NCBI GenBank assembly: GCA_934129745.1
Contig: CAKOWZ010000011.1
Location: 1,087-65,086 of the forward strand
DNA from: an uncultured Clostridia bacterium
GTDB taxonomy: Bacteria > Bacillota > Clostridia > TANB77 > CAG-508
Length of the DNA: 64,000 nt
Direction: 5' to 3'
Shown here: in pieces, positions 381 through 8,129 of the stretch
Layout of the letters: the number at the start of each line of letters is the position of its first letter
Position numbering within the stretch: position 1 is the stretch's first letter
Notes under the pieces: model-generated
Database searches by the model: none
What the model was told of the DNA's origin: nothing
What the model saw: the letters and a program-made list of their open reading frames with translations, nothing else
Program-made: the position numbers and the translations under genes

Positions 381-1646
381 ATGGGATTAATTAAAGCAGC
401 AGCAGGTGCAATAGGAAGCACATTACATGATCAATGGAAAGAAGCTATTAGATGTGAAGATTTAGGAAATGATATTCTAATGATGAAAAAAACAACACCA
501 ACAGGTGTTATAACAAATAAAAGTACAATTATTGTAGCACCAGGACAATGTGCTGTTATATTTGATAATGGTAAAATTATTGATGCAACAGCAGAAGAAG
601 GGTATTATACATTTGATACATCATCAAGTCCTTCATTTTTTGCAGGACAATTTGGTGCAGTATTTAAAGAAATGTGGCAACGTTTTACATATAATGGTGC
701 AACAGCTAAAGAACAAGCAGTATTTTTCTTTAATATTAAGGAAATTATAAAAAATAAATTTGGTACACCAGCACCTATTCCTTATCAAGATTGGTCACAT
801 GCTATACCAAATGAAATGACAGGAACACTTACACCATTAGGGGTTAAAGTTAAATGTTTTGGTACATATACATTTAGATTAGTAAATCCAGCTTTATTTA
901 TGAATAATATTGGTGGAACTGCTAATGTATATAGAGTATCTGAGTTAACAGAACAAATTCGTTCAGAAGTTGTAGCTGTATTCCAAAATGTATTAAATGA
1001 ATTAGGAAATTCTGCTCATAGAGTTCCAGTATTAGAATTACCAAGTAATACAGATGAAATAAAACAAATGATGGATGAAAAAGTATTTGATGAACCAGTA
1101 AGAAGAAGAGGTATGCAAATTGAAGTATTTTCTGTTGAATCTGTTACATTAGATCCTGATTCTGAAAGAAAAATTGAAGAATATGAACATAATTCAAATT
1201 CAAGAATGCAACAAGGTCGTGTTCTTGATGTTATGGAAGCAGCAGCTAAAAATGCAAATGGTTCTGCAAATGGATTTATGGGACTTGGTGTTATGAATAT
1301 GGCTACAGGTGGAATGGGAAATGCTGTTATGCAAAATGCATTTAATCCAGCTCAAACAACTCAATATCAACAAAATGCAAATTCTCAAACACAAAACCAA
1401 ACAACACCAGCTCAAGAACAAGCTCAACCAGTAACACCTGAAAATTCAAATGAAAATACACAATCAACATCTACATCAAATACAGCTAATTCATGGGTTT
1501 GCCCAACATGTGGAAATACATCAACAGGTAAATTCTGTGGAGAATGTGGTACTAAAAAACCAGAAGCTAATGTATGCAAAAATTGTGGAACAAAATTAAA
1601 TGAAGGTGCTAAATTCTGTGGAGAATGTGGTACTAAAGTTGAATAA
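381..1646 (+). CDS. SPFH/band-7 (stomatin-prohibitin-flotillin) family protein with two tandem C-terminal zinc ribbons (COG4260/YdjI-like)
   Basis: The N-terminus MGLIKAAAGAIGS...QWKE is typical of this family. An N/Q-rich linker is followed by WVCPTCGN..FCGECGTK and VCKNCGT..FCGECGTK. A strong RBS (aggagg) lies upstream. Confidence 0.8.
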   Translation: MGLIKAAAGAIGSTLHDQWKEAIRCEDLGNDILMMKKTTPTGVITNKSTIIVAPGQCAVIFDNGKIIDATAEEGYYTFDTSSSPSFFAGQFGAVFKEMWQRFTYNGATAKEQAVFFFNIKEIIKNKFGTPAPIPYQDWSHAIPNEMTGTLTPLGVKVKCFGTYTFRLVNPALFMNNIGGTANVYRVSELTEQIRSEVVAVFQNVLNELGNSAHRVPVLELPSNTDEIKQMMDEKVFDEPVRRRGMQIEVFSVESVTLDPDSERKIEEYEHNSNSRMQQGRVLDVMEAAAKNANGSANGFMGLGVMNMATGGMGNAVMQNAFNPAQTTQYQQNANSQTQNQTTPAQEQAQPVTPENSNENTQSTSTSNTANSWVCPTCGNTSTGKFCGECGTKKPEANVCKNCGTKLNEGAKFCGECGTKVE

Positions 1647-1683
1647 TTTTTGGTAAATAATATTTGTTATATATCATAAATAA

Positions 1684-1720
1684 AAAAGCATAAAATCATA
1701 AAGATTTTATGCTTTTTTAA
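1684..1720. terminator. bidirectional rho-independent terminator between convergent genes
   Basis: Hairpin aaagcataaaatc / gattttatgcttt flanked by A- and T-runs. Confidence 0.6.
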
Positions 1721-2349
1721 TATAGTAATGTAATGCTATTTCCGTTTTTATCAATAACTTTATCATTTTTTAAATATCCAATTTCTCTCATCATAGCACT
1801 TCTATCAACACTTAAGTAATCAGCAAGATCTGTAAGTGAAAAAGGGAGTGCAAAGGTTTTACTAAATGTTGAAGTAGAAATTATATTAAAATAGGTTAAA
1901 AGTTTTTCTCTTATAGTACGTTTACTTAAAATTTCAATTCTAGTATTTAATGAATTAATTTGATTTAAAAGCAAATTTGGTAATGTTTGAACTACAATTT
2001 TGTGATATGAACAGTTTTGAGTACATTTATTTTCTATAAATTCATAATCAAAAAACAATACTTCACATTTGGTTTTTGCTTCAACAAATAATTCATTATT
2101 TGTTGTAACATTATAAAAAATTTCACCAAAAACACTATTTGCAAGATAGTGTTCAACAATTGTTTTATTTCCATTAAAATCATATCTTATTAGGTCTGCT
2201 TCACCATTTTTTAAAAGACATAATTGGCGTCTTTTGGCTATATATGTAGTTATGATATCATTTTTTTTGAATGTTTTATTTTGTACTTTTTTACAGGTAT
2301 TACTGAATTCATCAAAAAATGTTGCTATTTCTTTTTGAGTTATATTCAT
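1717..2349 (-). CDS. Crp/Fnr family transcriptional regulator
   Basis: N-terminal cNMP-binding-like region and C-terminal HTH (FALPFSLTDLADYLSVDRSAMMREIGYL), the typical Crp/Fnr DNA-binding helix. Confidence 0.8.
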   Translation of the reverse strand: MNITQKEIATFFDEFSNTCKKVQNKTFKKNDIITTYIAKRRQLCLLKNGEADLIRYDFNGNKTIVEHYLANSVFGEIFYNVTTNNELFVEAKTKCEVLFFDYEFIENKCTQNCSYHKIVVQTLPNLLLNQINSLNTRIEILSKRTIREKLLTYFNIISTSTFSKTFALPFSLTDLADYLSVDRSAMMREIGYLKNDKVIDKNGNSITLLY

Positions 2350-2399
2350 GATGTAGCTTCCTTTCTTAGATATTTTTTATGGTTATTATACACGAAAAA

Positions 2400-2415
2400 T
2401 GTTGCGATTGCAACA
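2400..2415. promoter_or_regulatory. 16-bp palindrome TGTTGC-GATT-GCAACA, a candidate operator about 50 bp upstream of the Crp/Fnr regulator start
   Basis: Perfect 6-4-6 inverted repeat read directly from the sequence. Confidence 0.45.
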
Positions 2416-2567
2416 AAATTTGGATTAATTAATGATAAAAAAAATTATAACTTTTTATGGTAAATAGACGTAATAACTATGTCAAAAAAATGTAATAAAA
2501 TTTTTTCAAAAATTTTTACTTAGAAAAAACTGGGCTGAGCCTGTTCGCCTAAAAAAAAGTCATAATA

Positions 2568-2583
2568 TGTTGCAAATGCAACA
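2568..2583. promoter_or_regulatory. 16-bp palindrome TGTTGC-AAAT-GCAACA, a candidate operator about 90 bp upstream of nrdD
   Basis: Perfect 6-4-6 inverted repeat with the same half-sites as 2400-2415. No other copy occurs in the window. Confidence 0.45.
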
Positions 2584-2672
2584 ATAAAATACAAAGTAAT
2601 AGATTATAATTAGTTCATCAAGAAAAATAAAAATTAATACAAATAACTCAAGAAGAAAGGGATGTATGTAAG

Positions 2673-4976
2673 ATGCAAGTAATTAAAAGAGATGGAAGAT
2701 TAGTAGAATTTAATGGTGAAAGAATTGTTAAAGCTATAACTTTAGCTATGGCACAAACACAAGGTGGAGTAGATGTAGAATTAGCCAATAAAGTAGCAAA
2801 TGCTGTAGAAAAACAATTAGAAGATAAAAATCAAGTAACAGTATATGAAATTCAAGATTTAATTGAAAAAAAATTAATGACAACTTCAAGAAAAGAAGTA
2901 GCACAAAGTTATATAACATATAGATATAACAGAGATGTTGCAAGAAAATCTAAAACTAAAGAAATCTTTTTAGAGATTATTGGAGCAAAAGCAAATGATA
3001 TTACAAGAGAAAATGCAAATATGAATGCAGATACACCAGCTGGTATGATGATGAAGTTTGCTTCTGAAACTACAAAACCATTTGTTGATGATTTTCTATT
3101 TTCAGATGAAGCTAGAAAAGCTGTAAAAGATGGATATATACATGTTCATGATAAAGATTATTATCCAACAAAATCTTTAACTTGTTTACAACATCCATTA
3201 AATAAAATTTTGAAAAATGGTTTTAAAGCAGGACATGGTGCTTCAAGACCAGCAAAAAGAATTGAAACTGCAAGTATTTTAGGATGTATTTCAATGGAAA
3301 CTGTTCAAAATGAAATGCATGGTGGTCAAGCAATTCCAGCTTTTGATTATTATTTGGCTCCATATGTAAAAATGACATTTGTTGAGGAAATTAAAAAATT
3401 AGAAGAATTAACAGGAAGTGATTTATCAAAATATTATGATTATCAAGTTGAAGATTATATCAAAAAAGATATAAAAGATTTGAAAGGTGAAGAAAGAGAA
3501 TTACAATTTGCCATAAATAATACAGTATCAAGAGTTCATCAATCAATGGAAGCTTTTATACATAATATGAATACAATACATTCAAGAGGTGGAAATCAAG
3601 TTGTATTTAGTTCAATTAATTATGGAACAGATACTTCTCCAGAAGGTAGATGTATTATAAGAGAAATTTTATTATCTACTGAAAGAGGTGTTGGAAATAA
3701 TGAAACACCAATATTTCCAATTCAAATTTGGAAGAAAAAACGTGGTGTTAATTATTTACCAGAAGATAAAAACTATGATTTATATAAATTAGCTTGTAGA
3801 GTAACAGCAAAAAGATTTTTCCCTAATTTCATTAACTTAGATGCTACATTTAATCAACATGAAAAATGGAATGCAAATGATCCAGAAAGATTTAAATATG
3901 AATGTGCAACAATGGGATGTAGAACTAGAGTTTTTGAAAATAGACATGGTGAAAAAACATCTATTGGAAGAGGAAATTTATCATTTACAACAATTGATTT
4001 ACCAAAATTAGCAATAGAATCAGCTCTAGAAGCTCAAGAAAAAACAGGATGTAAATTTGATTTAGGTAGAGGTTCAGAAGAATTTATGACAGCTACTTAT
4101 AAAAAATCTGTAAAGAAAATTTTTATGAATAAATTGGAAGAATATGCAGGTGTTACAGCTCGTCAATTATATGACAGATATAGATTCCAATGTACTGCTA
4201 TTGCTAAACAATTCCCATTATTAATGGCAGGAATGTGGGAAGGAAGTGATGCTTTAGGTCCAAATGATTCTGTTGAACCAGTTTTAAAACAAGGTACTTT
4301 AGGAATTGGATTTATAGGATTAGCAGAATGTTTAACTGTTTTAACAGGTAAACATCATGCTGAATCAGAAGATTCTCAAAAATTAGGAATTGAAATTATT
4401 ACAGAATTACGTGATTTATCTAAAGAATTTTCTGATAGATATGATTTAAATTATAGTGTTTTAGCTACACCAGCTGAAGGGTTATCAGGAAGATTTACAA
4501 AATTAGATAGAAAAAAATATGGAACAATTTTAGGTGTTACAGATAGAGATTATTATACAAATAGTAATCATGTTCCAGTTTGGTATAAATGTACAGCTGA
4601 ACAAAAGGCTAGAGTTGAGGCACCATATCATGATTTAACAAGAGGTGGACATATATTCTATATTGAATTAGATGGTGATGCTACACATAATCCAGATACA
4701 ATTGAAGGTGTTGTTGATTTAATGGATAAATATAATATGGGATATGGAAGTGTTAATCATACTCGTACAAGATGTATGGATTGTGGTTTTGAAAATGCTG
4801 ATGCTAATTTAGAAAGATGCCCAGTGTGTGGAAGTGTTAATATTGATACAATTCAAAGAATTACTGGATATTTAGTTGGAACAACTTCTCGTTGGAATAA
4901 TGGAAAATTGGCTGAATTAAGAGATAGGGTTACTCATATTAGTGGAAAAGATTGTGAAGTTAAAGGTGCTCAATAA
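2673..4976 (+). CDS. nrdD: anaerobic ribonucleoside-triphosphate reductase (class III RNR)
   Basis: N-terminal ATP-cone (MQVIKRDGRLVEF), C-terminal zinc ribbon (CMDCG...CPVCG) and glycyl-radical motif RITGYLVGTTSRWNNGK. Confidence 0.95.
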   Translation: MQVIKRDGRLVEFNGERIVKAITLAMAQTQGGVDVELANKVANAVEKQLEDKNQVTVYEIQDLIEKKLMTTSRKEVAQSYITYRYNRDVARKSKTKEIFLEIIGAKANDITRENANMNADTPAGMMMKFASETTKPFVDDFLFSDEARKAVKDGYIHVHDKDYYPTKSLTCLQHPLNKILKNGFKAGHGASRPAKRIETASILGCISMETVQNEMHGGQAIPAFDYYLAPYVKMTFVEEIKKLEELTGSDLSKYYDYQVEDYIKKDIKDLKGEERELQFAINNTVSRVHQSMEAFIHNMNTIHSRGGNQVVFSSINYGTDTSPEGRCIIREILLSTERGVGNNETPIFPIQIWKKKRGVNYLPEDKNYDLYKLACRVTAKRFFPNFINLDATFNQHEKWNANDPERFKYECATMGCRTRVFENRHGEKTSIGRGNLSFTTIDLPKLAIESALEAQEKTGCKFDLGRGSEEFMTATYKKSVKKIFMNKLEEYAGVTARQLYDRYRFQCTAIAKQFPLLMAGMWEGSDALGPNDSVEPVLKQGTLGIGFIGLAECLTVLTGKHHAESEDSQKLGIEIITELRDLSKEFSDRYDLNYSVLATPAEGLSGRFTKLDRKKYGTILGVTDRDYYTNSNHVPVWYKCTAEQKARVEAPYHDLTRGGHIFYIELDGDATHNPDTIEGVVDLMDKYNMGYGSVNHTRTRCMDCGFENADANLERCPVCGSVNIDTIQRITGYLVGTTSRWNNGKLAELRDRVTHISGKDCEVKGAQ

Positions 4977-5083
4977 TTAAAAAATTGATTTAGATAAAAA
5001 TTATAAAGATACTAAAGGTTAAATAGAGAATGAATGAAGTTTTTATTTGTTCTCTATTTAATAAACAAAAGGAGGATTTAACT

Positions 5084-5587
5084 ATGAATATGGCAGGTTT
5101 TTATGATGAGAGTATATCAAATGGACTAGGATGGAGAGCAGTTTTATTTGTAAGTGGTTGCCCTCATAATTGCCCAGGATGTCAAAATAAAATGGCACAA
5201 AATTACAGTTATGGTGAACAATTTGATAAACAAAAAATTATAGATAGAATTTGTGATAATTCTCTTTTAAAAGGAATTACAATAAGTGGTGGTGAACCTC
5301 TTTGTAAAGAAAATGTTGGGGCAGTTTTAGATTTTATAAAAGATGTAAAAAAAGTTAGACCTAATTTTAATGTATGGTGTTATAGTGGATATACAATTGA
5401 AGAATTAAAAAATAGAAATGATAAGATTACAAATGAGGCATTAAATGAAATTGATGTTTTAGTTGATGGAAGATTTGTACAAGAAAAAAGAGATCCAAAT
5501 CTTAAATTTAGAGGATCTTCTAATCAAAGAATTCTTGATGTTAAAAAAACTATTAAAGAAAACCAAATTGTACAAATTGCTTTATAA
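5084..5587 (+). CDS. nrdG: anaerobic ribonucleotide reductase activating protein (radical SAM)
   Basis: CPHNCPGCQN radical-SAM cluster motif. An AGGAGG RBS lies 8 nt upstream of the ATG at 5084, and the gene sits directly after nrdD. The ORF-track start at 5030 lacks an RBS. Confidence 0.9.
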   Translation: MNMAGFYDESISNGLGWRAVLFVSGCPHNCPGCQNKMAQNYSYGEQFDKQKIIDRICDNSLLKGITISGGEPLCKENVGAVLDFIKDVKKVRPNFNVWCYSGYTIEELKNRNDKITNEALNEIDVLVDGRFVQEKRDPNLKFRGSSNQRILDVKKTIKENQIVQIAL

Positions 5588-5733
5588 TTTTTTATGGACA
5601 TCTATCAAATTTTTGATGTTTTGAAAGATGTTATTAAAAGACACTTTTAAAAGACACGAAATTTTGAACTGTTTTTTAGAGGTGTCTTTAATAACATTTT
5701 CAGAGGTGTTACTAAAACAAAGGGAGGAAAAGT

Positions 5734-7218
5734 TTGAAAGTTATAAAAAGAGATGGAAGAGCTGTTGAATATAATAGTAATAAAATTTTTGTGGCAATTG
5801 AAAAGGCTAATAATGATGTTACTGAAGATAAAAGAACAACAGAAGAAGAAATTAATCATATAATTGAATATATAGAATCTCTTGATAAAAAAAGAATTTT
5901 AGTTGAAGATATACAAGATATTATTGAACAAAAATTAATGGAATTAGGTAAATATGAACTTGCAAAACAGTATATAGTTTACAGATATACCAGAGCTTTG
6001 GTTAGAAAACAAAACACTACAGATGAATCAATTTTAGGTTTAATAAAAAATGGTGGAAATGTTTTTCAAAATCCTGAGGGAAATAGTATGATGGCTTGTG
6101 TTCAAAGAAATTTGATTGCAGGGGAAGTGTCTAAAGACTTGACTAAAAGAATTTTATTACCAGAAAAAATTACTAAAGCACATGAAGATGGAATACTTTA
6201 TTTTCATGATATGGAATATTTTTTACAACCAATAATAAATTCATCTTTAATAAATTTGGGCGATATGCTTGATAATGGAACATGCATAAATAATTATAAT
6301 ATTGATACTCCAAATGGATTTTTAGAAGCATGTATGATATTTTCACAAATTATTCAAGCAGTTTCAAATAGTCAATATGGAAAAATTTATGTAGATGTCA
6401 AACATTTAGGAAAATATTTGAGAAAAAGTACCAAAAATATTATTGAAGATGAAGAAAATATTATAGGAAAAAATTCATTGGAAATTCATAAAAAACAACA
6501 GGAAATTGTGGATAATAAAGTTGAAAAAGAACTTGAACAGGGAATTAAAATTATTAAATATCAAATAAATGGATTAATAAATATGAGCGGAAATAATCAT
6601 ATTGTTTCATTAATAATGATAAATGATAGTGAAAATGAATATTATGAAGAAATTGAAATGATAATAAATGAAATTAAAAAACAAAATATTGAGAATTGTG
6701 ATATTATTACAAAAAAACAGGAAATTCCTAAGTATCAATATGAAGGGCATTTTAATTATGGAATTGTTAGTATTAATTTATTGAAAATTGTTAAAGATTT
6801 ATTAAAAAATAATTTTGAAAATAGTAATAAAGAAGAGATTGATAAAAATAAACTAGAAAATAATTTTTGGAAAATGTTAGATGATAGGTTAGAATTATGT
6901 TATGAGGCTCTTATGTGTAGACATTATGCTTTATTAGGAACAATATCTGATTCAAGCCCAATTCATTGGCAATATGGAGCAATTTCAAGGATTGAAAAAG
7001 GTGAAAAAATTGATAAATTGTTAAAAGATGGATATTCTGATATTTGTTTGAATTATACAGATTTTGATGAAACTATAGATACAATGTCAGAAAATTTAGA
7101 AATGGATAAATCTTATGAAGAAAAATTCAAAAATAAATTGAGTAAAAATTTAGAAAATAAGGTTCAAAATTGGAGAAAAATGACCGGATTAGGTTTTACA
7201 TTAAAAAAAGATATATAA
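5734..7218 (+). CDS. truncated NrdD-like paralog: ATP-cone plus NrdD N-terminal core, lacking the glycyl-radical and zinc-ribbon C-terminus
   Basis: MKVIKRDGRAVEYN is an ATP-cone. GILYFHDMEYF aligns with nrdD's GYIHVHDKDYY, and EALMCRHY aligns with nrdD's ATMGCRTRV. The protein ends at 494 aa after a K/E/N-rich low-complexity insert. TTG start with a GGAGG RBS. Confidence 0.6.
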   Translation: MKVIKRDGRAVEYNSNKIFVAIEKANNDVTEDKRTTEEEINHIIEYIESLDKKRILVEDIQDIIEQKLMELGKYELAKQYIVYRYTRALVRKQNTTDESILGLIKNGGNVFQNPEGNSMMACVQRNLIAGEVSKDLTKRILLPEKITKAHEDGILYFHDMEYFLQPIINSSLINLGDMLDNGTCINNYNIDTPNGFLEACMIFSQIIQAVSNSQYGKIYVDVKHLGKYLRKSTKNIIEDEENIIGKNSLEIHKKQQEIVDNKVEKELEQGIKIIKYQINGLINMSGNNHIVSLIMINDSENEYYEEIEMIINEIKKQNIENCDIITKKQEIPKYQYEGHFNYGIVSINLLKIVKDLLKNNFENSNKEEIDKNKLENNFWKMLDDRLELCYEALMCRHYALLGTISDSSPIHWQYGAISRIEKGEKIDKLLKDGYSDICLNYTDFDETIDTMSENLEMDKSYEEKFKNKLSKNLENKVQNWRKMTGLGFTLKKDI

Positions 7219-7361
7219 AAAGAAAAATGAGATATCTTCTTTAATTATTTTTAGTAGGTATTTCATTTTTTTATTTTTTGAAATCCAAACTTAATGATTG
7301 TATAGACAAAAATTTTTCATTATGGTATAATTGCAATAAATTAAGGAAAGAGAGAGATTAT

Positions 7362-8129
7362 ATGCCAAAATTTTTTGTTAATAATGAACAAGTTGATAAT
7401 GGTAAAATTAGAATTTTAGGAAAAGATATTAATCATATAAAAAATGTATTAAGAATGAAAATTGATGATACTTTTAATGTATGTAATGAAGATGATTCAC
7501 AAAATTATGTAGTTAAAATTGCTAGATTTGAGGAACAAGAGATTATTTGTGATATTATCGAAAAATGTGAAAATAGTGCAGAATCTAATGTAAAAGTTCA
7601 TATTTTTCAGGGATTACCAAAATCAGATAAAATGGAATTAATTATTCAGAAATCAGTTGAATTAGGAGTTCAAAAAATTACTCCTGTTGAAATGAAAAGA
7701 TGTGTTGTAAAATTAGATGGAAAAGATAAAATTAAAAAAATAGAAAGATGGCAAAAAATTGCTGAAGTTGCAGCAAAACAAAGTGGTAGAGATATTGTAC
7801 CAGAAATATGTTCTGTAAAAAATGTTAAGGAAATTTCAAGTGATTTTAGTAAATTTGATTTAGTTATTTTGTGTTATGAAAATGAAAAAAATATTTTCCT
7901 AAAAGATGTTTTAAAAGAATTGGCTAAAAGAAATTTGAATTCTGTTCAGGAGTTAAAAATTGCTGTTATTATTGGACCTGAAGGTGGAATTGATATTTCT
8001 GAAGTTGAATATATGGAACAAAATGGTGCAAAAGTTGTAAGTCTTGGAAATAGAATTTTAAGGACTGAAACTGTTGGATTATCTTTGTTAAGTATTATTA
8101 TGTATGAATTCGAAAGGAATGAAAGATAG
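7362..8129 (+). CDS. rsmE: 16S rRNA (uracil1498-N3)-methyltransferase
   Basis: The MPKFFV start is typical of RsmE, and the C-terminal SPOUT-like region reads GPEGG...RILRTETVGL. The ORF-track start at 7278 is probably too far upstream. Confidence 0.85.
   Translation: MPKFFVNNEQVDNGKIRILGKDINHIKNVLRMKIDDTFNVCNEDDSQNYVVKIARFEEQEIICDIIEKCENSAESNVKVHIFQGLPKSDKMELIIQKSVELGVQKITPVEMKRCVVKLDGKDKIKKIERWQKIAEVAAKQSGRDIVPEICSVKNVKEISSDFSKFDLVILCYENEKNIFLKDVLKELAKRNLNSVQELKIAVIIGPEGGIDISEVEYMEQNGAKVVSLGNRILRTETVGLSLLSIIMYEFERNER

Follow-up and report, generated by a model that had tools for sequence, protein, structure and literature searches.

Two conserved palindromes between nrdD and a divergent Crp/Fnr-family regulator gene in uncultured gut Clostridia: probable operators for a dedicated regulator of the anaerobic ribonucleotide reductase

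The stretch of DNA considered here (the window) comprises 64 kb of contig CAKOWZ010000011.1 from an uncultured Clostridia bacterium, is very AT-rich (25.7% GC), and carries near its start a gene for a Crp/Fnr-family regulator that diverges from nrdD, the gene for the catalytic subunit of the class III anaerobic ribonucleotide reductase (RNR). Two perfect inverted repeats of 16 bp lie between these genes, and it is these repeats and the protein most likely to bind them that are the subject of this work. Many strict gut anaerobes probably have no other source of DNA precursors than this reductase, and to our knowledge the control of the enzyme is essentially undescribed outside the Proteobacteria (FNR, Anr/Dnr) and the general NrdR system. 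A first-pass annotation had named the two flanking genes, placed both repeats, and proposed that the regulator controls nrdD as well as itself; the domain matches agree with the naming, and each repeat was recovered at the coordinates it had been given (Table 1).

Table 1. Genes and sequence elements of the regulator-nrdD locus, in window coordinates.
Feature	Position	Strand	Basis or remark
Crp/Fnr-family regulator, 210 aa	1717-2349	-	Pfam cNMP_binding and HTH_Crp_2, homologues, conservation, Crp fold, comparison with FNR/CRP
Inferred -10 TATAAT, regulator promoter	2385-2390	-	Promoter scan; spacing conserved
Probable regulator-proximal operator, TGTTGCGATTGCAACA, perfect 16-bp inverted repeat	2400-2415	.	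Overlaps the -35 region of the regulator's own promoter; sequence, rarity, orthologous sites, spacing
Inferred -35 TTGCAA, regulator promoter, within operator half-site	2408-2413	-	Promoter scan; conserved spacing
Probable nrdD-proximal operator, TGTTGCAAATGCAACA, perfect 16-bp inverted repeat	2568-2583	.	Sequence, rarity, orthologous sites in about 66 unique promoters, spacing
Inferred -10 TATAAT, nrdD promoter	2605-2610	+	Kept in L081, L083 and all type-B nrdD promoters
nrdD, class III anaerobic RNR catalytic subunit, 767 aa, PRK07111 type	2673-4976	+	Domain matches
nrdG, radical-SAM activase	5030-5587	+	Domain match; L081 and L083 keep the gene order
Truncated second NrdD paralogue, 494 aa	5734-7218	+	ATP-cone and N-terminal NrdD part

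The NrdD of the window is full-length, with an ATP-cone and NRDD domain (E=4.5e-188) and, at its C-terminus, a zinc ribbon and the glycyl-radical motif RITGY. It probably shares one operon with nrdG, of which the 494-aa NrdD paralogue, itself without the zinc ribbon and the glycyl-radical domain, is probably the last gene. The regulator is a member of the Crp/Fnr superfamily, as the beta-barrel, the helix-turn-helix (HTH), the dimerisation helix and a 5-N4-5 operator are all present. PF00027 matches residues 25-111 (E=3.2e-08, 33.9 bits against a cut-off of 27.5), and PF13545 matches residues 164-209 with 27.0 bits, exactly at its cut-off of 27. The AlphaFold2 model (mean pLDDT 81) has a beta-roll, a long helix at 114-141 and an HTH at 172-195, and Foldseek aligns it with NtcA, Clr, Vfr, FNR, CprK, CRP and CooA at E values of about 1e-11 and below 22% identity. 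The hhalign probability is 95.7% against FNR and 92.2% against CRP, and the best sequence match in the PDB is Listeria Lmo0753 (E=1e-8). An assignment to a named family was sought and abandoned: the PDB sequence and fold searches return generic Crp/Fnr neighbours only, and NCBIfam holds no equivalog for the protein, with matches to NtcA, FnrL and CRP that are all far below threshold. Its homologues in the database number 3544 at E <=1e-5, and the closest of these come from metagenome-assembled genomes (MAGs) of uncultured gut Clostridia, where they are annotated only as 'Crp/Fnr family transcriptional regulator'. An exhaustive profile search places the nrdD-linked clade in a single 50%-identity cluster, within a wider family of 250 such clusters at E <=1e-30 and 2600 at <=1e-10. 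As judged from these searches, the regulator represents an undescribed subfamily of uncultured gut Clostridia.

The regulator-proximal repeat lies 50 nt from the regulator ATG (2349) and the nrdD-proximal repeat 89 nt from the nrdD ATG (2673), the latter in keeping with the approximately 90 bp estimated beforehand. Both share the 14-bp core GTTGC-N4-GCAAC, a 5-N4-5 inverted repeat whose geometry does fit the Crp/Fnr family as had been suggested. The core occurs exactly twice in the window, at these two sites, and the claim that the 64 kb hold no third copy is thereby borne out; dinucleotide-preserving shuffles contain a mean of 0.03 copies and a maximum of 1, and none of 100 shuffles contained two or more. 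A scan with the full 16-mer pattern returned ten further matches, each with two mismatches. A position weight matrix (PWM) trained exclusively on sites from other genomes, with the window excluded, assigns 23.3 and 27.9 bits to the two sites, and a scan of the 64 kb with this matrix identified no further members of a regulon in the window, the best remaining position scoring 12.7 bits, nor a separate operator ahead of the 494-aa paralogue. The pair of palindromes is real and far above chance expectation.

The same arrangement is found across relatives. One genome per species was sampled, which gave 80 loci with a regulator at 57-76% identity to that of the window, and these were fetched with 4-kb flanks for a total of 639 kb. 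In approximately 70 of the 80 species-level loci, an nrdD-type gene is the immediate neighbour of the regulator, usually in divergent orientation and in a few cases in tandem (L046, L047, L050), and two copies of the palindrome are present in nearly every regulator-nrdD intergenic region. The nrdD-side copy stands 58-62 nt upstream of the start codon (87-89 nt for the nrdD type of the window), and the regulator-side copy stands some 30-60 nt upstream of the regulator start codon. There are 148 PWM matches of at least 16 bits in the 639 kb; 127 of them fall inside the regulator-nrdD intergenic region, and almost all of the remainder lie directly upstream of regulator or nrdD genes in tandem or split arrangements. 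Given this distribution, the motif tracks the regulator and nrdD genes and nothing else in the sampled DNA. In the tandem loci just named, the regulator gene and nrdD each keep a site of their own, and in four others (L016, L020, L052, L059) the site accompanies a regulator gene that has no adjacent nrdD. The distance between the two sites differs among loci (about 100, 123, 127, 155 or 168 bp), and DNA looping or helical phasing between them, which was also considered, is not required given this variable spacing and the lack of a constant phase.

The partner of the regulator alternates between two NrdD lineages, as seen when L001-L080 are compared with window positions 2673-4976. Most species have the PRK09263-type gene ('type B', about 708 aa) beside the regulator, and the window clade (the window, L001, L081 and L083) has the PRK07111-type gene ('type A'). 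Both types stand in series in L019, L039 and L043, where a weaker extra site precedes the type-A copy, and the operator travels with whichever of the two types a locus has.

Among 94 unique sites from other genomes, the bases G2-T3-T4-G5-C6 and G11-C12-A13-A14-C15 are essentially invariant, and the 4-nt spacer and the flanking sequence vary. This pattern bears upon the possibility that the palindromes are not protein-binding DNA at all but RNA hairpins, acting as small terminators or attenuators. A terminator scan does flag a minus-strand hairpin at 2415-2400, with 6 bp in its stem, 4 nt in its loop and a T-run, and the T-run that follows the regulator-proximal site is conserved. However, a stem of 6 bp is short, and its bases show no covariation; because the stem is invariant while the 'loop' is free to vary, base-specific contact by a protein is indicated and not RNA pairing. 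Furthermore, the nrdD-proximal copy precedes a GAAAA sequence in place of a T-run, both copies lie upstream of the inferred -10 boxes and so would not be transcribed, and an E-value scan of positions 1600-7400 against Rfam returned nothing relevant to a riboswitch or other RNA element. We consider an origin of the palindromes as RNA hairpins scarcely credible.

If the palindromes are bound by a protein, the adjacent regulator is the obvious candidate, and the conservation of its recognition helix is consistent with such a role. Conservation was counted over 120 family members, and the helix R183-S-A-M-M-R188 is invariant in every one of them. Many of the more distant members (metagenome loci L085-L164; P0134-P0216) come from high-GC gut Clostridia, of about 60% GC, at 35-53% identity. 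Distant members, which are not linked to nrdD, keep exactly one N-terminal Cys, a C-x3-C-x2-H segment and a DRSAMMRE helix, and a minority of them, approximately 36-39% identical and with no nrdD nearby (L138, L140, L150, L154, L156, L158), carry GTTGC-N4-GCAAC upstream of their own gene. Because distant homologues with the same helix carry the same palindrome, the RSAMMR helix appears to pair with this DNA core. The genes that neighbour distant homologues (L140, L158) are uninformative with respect to the signal.

It might be argued that the palindromes serve a factor encoded elsewhere, be it NrdR or some global regulator, and that the Crp/Fnr gene is a bystander, as NrdR boxes, with the consensus acaCwAtATaTwGtg, are the usual cis-elements of nrd promoters (PMC4009431). 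The palindromes do not match this consensus, however, and no NrdR-like box is present in the regulator-nrdD intergenic region (the window as a whole has 4 matches at <=3 mismatches, against 3.7 expected). NrdR boxes also occur as close tandem pairs, as opposed to one site per promoter at a separation of 100-168 bp, and an unlinked factor would not readily account for a site that stays with the regulator gene in loci without an adjacent nrdD and in distant homologues, nor for an invariant recognition helix matched by an invariant core. An unlinked factor is in our estimation very improbable, and the two palindromes are very likely operators through which the adjacent regulator acts on nrdD and on itself.

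The position of each site relative to its promoter provides an indication of what the regulator would do there. All centre positions given here assume that transcription starts 7 nt past the inferred -10 box. On the nrdD side, TATAAT starts 20 nt past the palindrome in 59 of 66 unique promoters and 21-22 nt past it in the window clade (also in L081 and L083); taken together, 63 of the 66 have a perfect TATAAT at 20-22 nt, and in the other three the score fell on a chance TATAAT that comes earlier. Where a -35 element would be expected, the nrdD promoter has ACAGAA, which has no likeness to TTGACA, and the inferred site centre falls at -40.5 to -42.5. A site near -41.5, no -35 element and an intact -10 box together suggest the layout of a class II activator-dependent promoter. 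On the regulator side, all 54 unique promoters, that of the window among them, have a perfect TATAAT exactly 9 nt past the palindrome, and a scan of the minus strand for promoters independently returned TTGCAA, a 17-nt spacer and TATAAT for the regulator gene. The inferred centre of this site is -29.5. As the left half-site is the -35 hexamer, a bound dimer would cover the -35 region, which would argue for negative autoregulation.

These spacings also bear upon a reading in which the same regulator occupies the same sites but represses both promoters, and leaves the DNA upon receipt of its signal. With its end at approximately -33, the nrdD-proximal palindrome overlaps the position expected of a -35 hexamer, Crp/Fnr proteins can repress, and negative autoregulation is already predicted for the other site. 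Mere occlusion, however, would hardly explain two distinct and rigid spacings (20-22 as against 9 nt to a perfect -10 box), a centre of -41.5 +/- 1 is the canonical class II position, and the absence of a -35-like hexamer from the nrdD promoters is typical of activator dependence, the regulator promoter by comparison having TTGCAA. Repression of both promoters thus strikes us as improbable. Activation of nrdD together with repression of the regulator's own promoter is the likely assignment of directions, and the first-pass proposal that the regulator controls both genes, which the linkage of the genes, the presence of both sites and a fixed promoter geometry kept across some 70 loci all uphold, can probably be sharpened in this manner.

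A further feature of the type-B nrdD promoters (L002-L080) is a near-invariant GAAAA directly after the palindrome, at about -32 to -28, with the G present in 41 of 42 unique sites. The window has ATAAAA after its nrdD-proximal palindrome, and regulator-proximal sites carry the T-run next instead of GAAAA. At the activated promoter, the regulator or the sigma factor may make an additional contact with this element.

What the regulator senses is less readily deduced. It had been called 'Fnr-like', with the suggestion that an N-terminal Cys cluster be sought as opposed to a cyclic nucleotide pocket; when both were looked for, neither the FNR cluster nor the phosphate-binding residues of CRP were present, and the description holds only in the loose sense of the superfamily, for the Cys cluster of Bacillus Fnr is missing as well. 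The C-x2-C-x5-C cluster of FNR is absent from the N-terminus of the regulator, which has a single conserved Cys (C19), and the C-x2-C-x4-C cluster of Bacillus-type Fnr is absent from its C-terminus, where no Cys follows the HTH and the sequence closes with ...GNSITLLY at residue 210. For the remaining comparisons, the protein was aligned with sequences of E. coli FNR and of CRP that were entered by hand. The residue aligned with Cys122 of FNR is C95, which is Ser or Ala in 14 of the 120 members, and the recognition helix reads R-S-A-M-M-R where FNR has V-E-T-I-S-R, with Ser at the position of Glu209 and Met at that of Ser212. Arg82 and Ser83 of CRP, which bind the cAMP phosphate, align with the invariant Asn85 and Glu86, and the CRP site TGTGA-N6-TCACA differs from the present one in its half-site and in its spacer (N4 here). 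As far as sequence comparison can tell, the regulator falls outside canonical FNR, Bacillus-type Fnr and CRP alike.

What the family has instead is a signature of its own. All 120 members keep the pattern Cys19...Cys109-x3-Cys113-x2-His116, C44 is kept by 119 of them, and the beta-barrel pocket residues T83-N84-N85-E86 are invariant and clade-specific. FNR and CRP have no counterpart of the CxxxCxxH segment, which is inserted just before the dimerisation helix, and in FNR the region before this helix transmits the state of the cluster to dimerisation. This segment and the N-terminus are the lowest-confidence parts of the AlphaFold2 model; confidence is frequently low where a model lacks a cofactor. 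We favour a metal or redox centre because the Cys and His residues are invariant family-wide, because they are placed so as to affect dimerisation, and because the target enzyme is destroyed by oxygen. Oxygen or redox sensing by the regulator is accordingly best described as plausible: that the signal passes through any metal or thiol redox mechanism built on C19, C109, C113 and H116 is a proposal to which we would give slightly less than even odds, and a role for an Fe-S cluster in particular is doubtful. The broadest form of the idea must be regarded as speculative. It would hold that the N-terminal Cys and CxxxCxxH define a new class of Crp/Fnr sensor, in which a 3Cys-1His Fe-S or metal centre gates dimerisation and DNA binding in response to oxygen, oxidants or iron, and that this class, with hundreds of 50%-identity clusters and a wide spread among gut Clostridia, has one branch that serves as the on-switch of the sole RNR in small-genome obligate anaerobes.

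Taken together, we propose that a dimer of the regulator binds GTTGC-N4-GCAAC, with the R-S-A-M-M-R helix reading each half-site. Centred at approximately -41 of the nrdD promoter, where the perfect -10 box, the lack of a -35 box and the distance of the site all suggest recruitment, the dimer would bring in RNA polymerase as a class II activator and turn on nrdD and nrdG, and probably the truncated paralogue as well. At approximately -29.5 of its own promoter it would block RNA polymerase, such that the regulator would limit its own synthesis. DNA binding may be controlled by Cys19 and the Cys109-x3-Cys113-x2-His116 segment, which would form a metal centre or a redox switch where the dimerisation helix begins, and such a switch would tie expression of an oxygen-labile glycyl-radical enzyme to anoxic or reducing conditions. 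We place the probability of this explanation as a whole, that is, of the operators, nrdD activation, autorepression and a putative metal or redox signal, at roughly 0.78.

Binding by the regulator, the direction of regulation and the nature of the signal are here argued from the conservation of the sites, gene linkage, spacing and protein signatures, and several considerations weigh against the proposal. For all of the organisms involved, the evidence consists of sequence from uncultured MAGs. The positions of -41 and -29.5 depend upon the assumed offset of the start site, and a site at -41 touches the -35 region, which leaves room for repression at nrdD. With regard to the signal, C19, C109, C113 and H116 could bind structural zinc instead, a small-molecule effector in the beta-barrel is possible in view of the invariant T83-N84-N85-E86, and obligate anaerobes may have no need to place nrdD under the control of oxygen.

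Several other features of the locus deserve mention. The truncated paralogue aligns with residues 1-545 of the 708-aa type-B NrdD, the form that stands beside the regulator in most other species, at 47% identity. The C-terminal portion of about 160 aa, with zinc ribbon and glycyl-radical motif, is missing from it and has left nothing behind downstream, and a further stretch is deleted internally. Truncated forms of 506 and 534 aa are kept after nrdG in L081 (1-808) and L083 (1-744), and because such forms are conserved after nrdG in close relatives the 494-aa protein may be a maintained, non-catalytic ATP-cone protein as opposed to a fresh pseudogene. On the other side of the regulator, and convergent to it, lies a gene for an SPFH/Band-7 protein with C-terminal double zinc ribbons (381-1646, plus strand), which is syntenic in relatives (L081 4912-6123, L082 1277-2488, L084 807-2099) and is separated from the regulator by a strong bidirectional terminator hairpin at 1681-1719. 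The window as a whole (1-64000) has an extreme bias of coding strand: nearly all open reading frames of at least 120 aa that do not overlap a longer one are on the plus strand, and the regulator is among the very few genes on the minus strand.

Two additional elements were found in the intergenic region. Midway between the operators, at 2452-2499, is an imperfect tandem direct repeat of 22 nt, TATGGTAAATAGACGTAATAAC / TATGTCAAAAAAATGTAATAAA; its block TTTATGG(A/T)AAATAGACGTAATAA(C/G)TATGT is approximately 90% conserved in L081 and L083, as the neighbouring intergenic sequence is not, and the repeat may be the site of a second factor or an upstream promoter element. A GC-rich patch of 20 nt, ctgggctgagcctgttcgcc, stands out at 2531-2550 in an intergenic region of 25% GC. 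It was set aside as a functional element, being not conserved in L081 or L083 and having no Rfam match.

The regulatory principle proposed here would be no surprise to a specialist, yet the case is unusually clean and directly testable. For these uncultured gut Clostridia, which form a large group, the locus offers an operator that can be tested, a predicted direction of regulation for each promoter and a Cys/His module that may be a new sensor. The 14-bp core and the fixed promoter geometry could serve the reconstruction of regulons in MAGs, and could also serve in anaerobe-specific expression switches. The conserved signature amounts to a short list of residues for mutagenesis, and its three Cys and one His could define a new type of sensor in these abundant anaerobes.

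The closest parallel in function is the control of nrdDG in E. coli. Activation of this promoter by FNR was reportedly described by Boston and Atlung in 2003 and by Roca et al. in 2008, and Anr/Dnr is said to have the same role at the class III RNR of Pseudomonas. At the E. coli nrdDG promoter, FNR exerts its activation from a pair of FNR boxes at -33.5 and -64.5 (PMC10425943, PMC4009431). Both systems would place a Crp/Fnr dimer on 5-N4-5 inverted repeats upstream of a class III RNR operon, with activation predicted in the present case, and both would see to it that an oxygen-labile enzyme is made only when it is able to work; negative autoregulation, established for FNR, is predicted for the clostridial regulator. 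The two differ in the box itself (GTTGC-N4-GCAAC here, TTGAT-N4-ATCAA for FNR) and in its deployment, with one site per promoter at approximately -41 in place of the tandem sites of E. coli. Furthermore, FNR is a global regulator, whereas the one described here appears to be a dedicated, local regulator encoded beside nrdD, and its hosts, unlike E. coli, are uncultured low-GC Clostridia and obligate anaerobes.

Local Crp/Fnr regulators of anaerobes do have precedent in the HcpR2 proteins of Clostridia, Bacteroides and Thermotogae, which were predicted by comparative genomics (Rodionov et al. 2005, PMC1274295). These recognize the palindrome GTAAC-N4-GTTAC, and substitutions at CRP position 181 track the changes in their motif (PMC1274295). 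As in the present case, HcpR2 is encoded beside its target gene and has a 5-N4-5 palindrome, and some clostridial HcpR2 proteins share the Ser found here at position 181, where most have Pro. The target here is nrdD (approximately 70 of 80 loci) and not hcp, the core is GTTGC/GCAAC, and the Cys...CxxxCxxH signature is not described for HcpR; the published features of the family thus set HcpR2 apart. The NrdR boxes resemble the present sites in being conserved 16-bp palindromes upstream of RNR genes that were found by comparative genomics. NrdR itself, however, is a repressor with an ATP-cone and a zinc ribbon, and its paired boxes are phased by whole helical turns over the promoter.

With respect to the putative sensor, the nearest company is found among Gram-positive Crp/Fnr proteins with non-canonical Cys residues. 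B. subtilis Fnr holds a C-terminal [4Fe-4S] cluster by means of three Cys and an Asp, and CprK and Lactobacillus Flp use disulfides. These three proteins sense oxygen or redox state and demonstrate that the Crp/Fnr family tolerates many sensor designs; the candidate ligands of the present regulator, one N-terminal Cys and the CxxxCxxH segment before the dimerisation helix, differ from those of B. subtilis Fnr. A full-text search of the literature, with curated regulon databases outside its scope, returned neither a clostridial Crp/Fnr regulator linked to nrdD nor a GTTGC/GCAAC box, and the only GCAAC-type palindrome it brought up, the Zur site of Desulfovibrio, is unrelated. Viewed against these systems, the superfamily and the regulatory logic are familiar, and novelty appears to lie in the DNA motif, in the target to which the regulator is dedicated and in its putative sensor signature.

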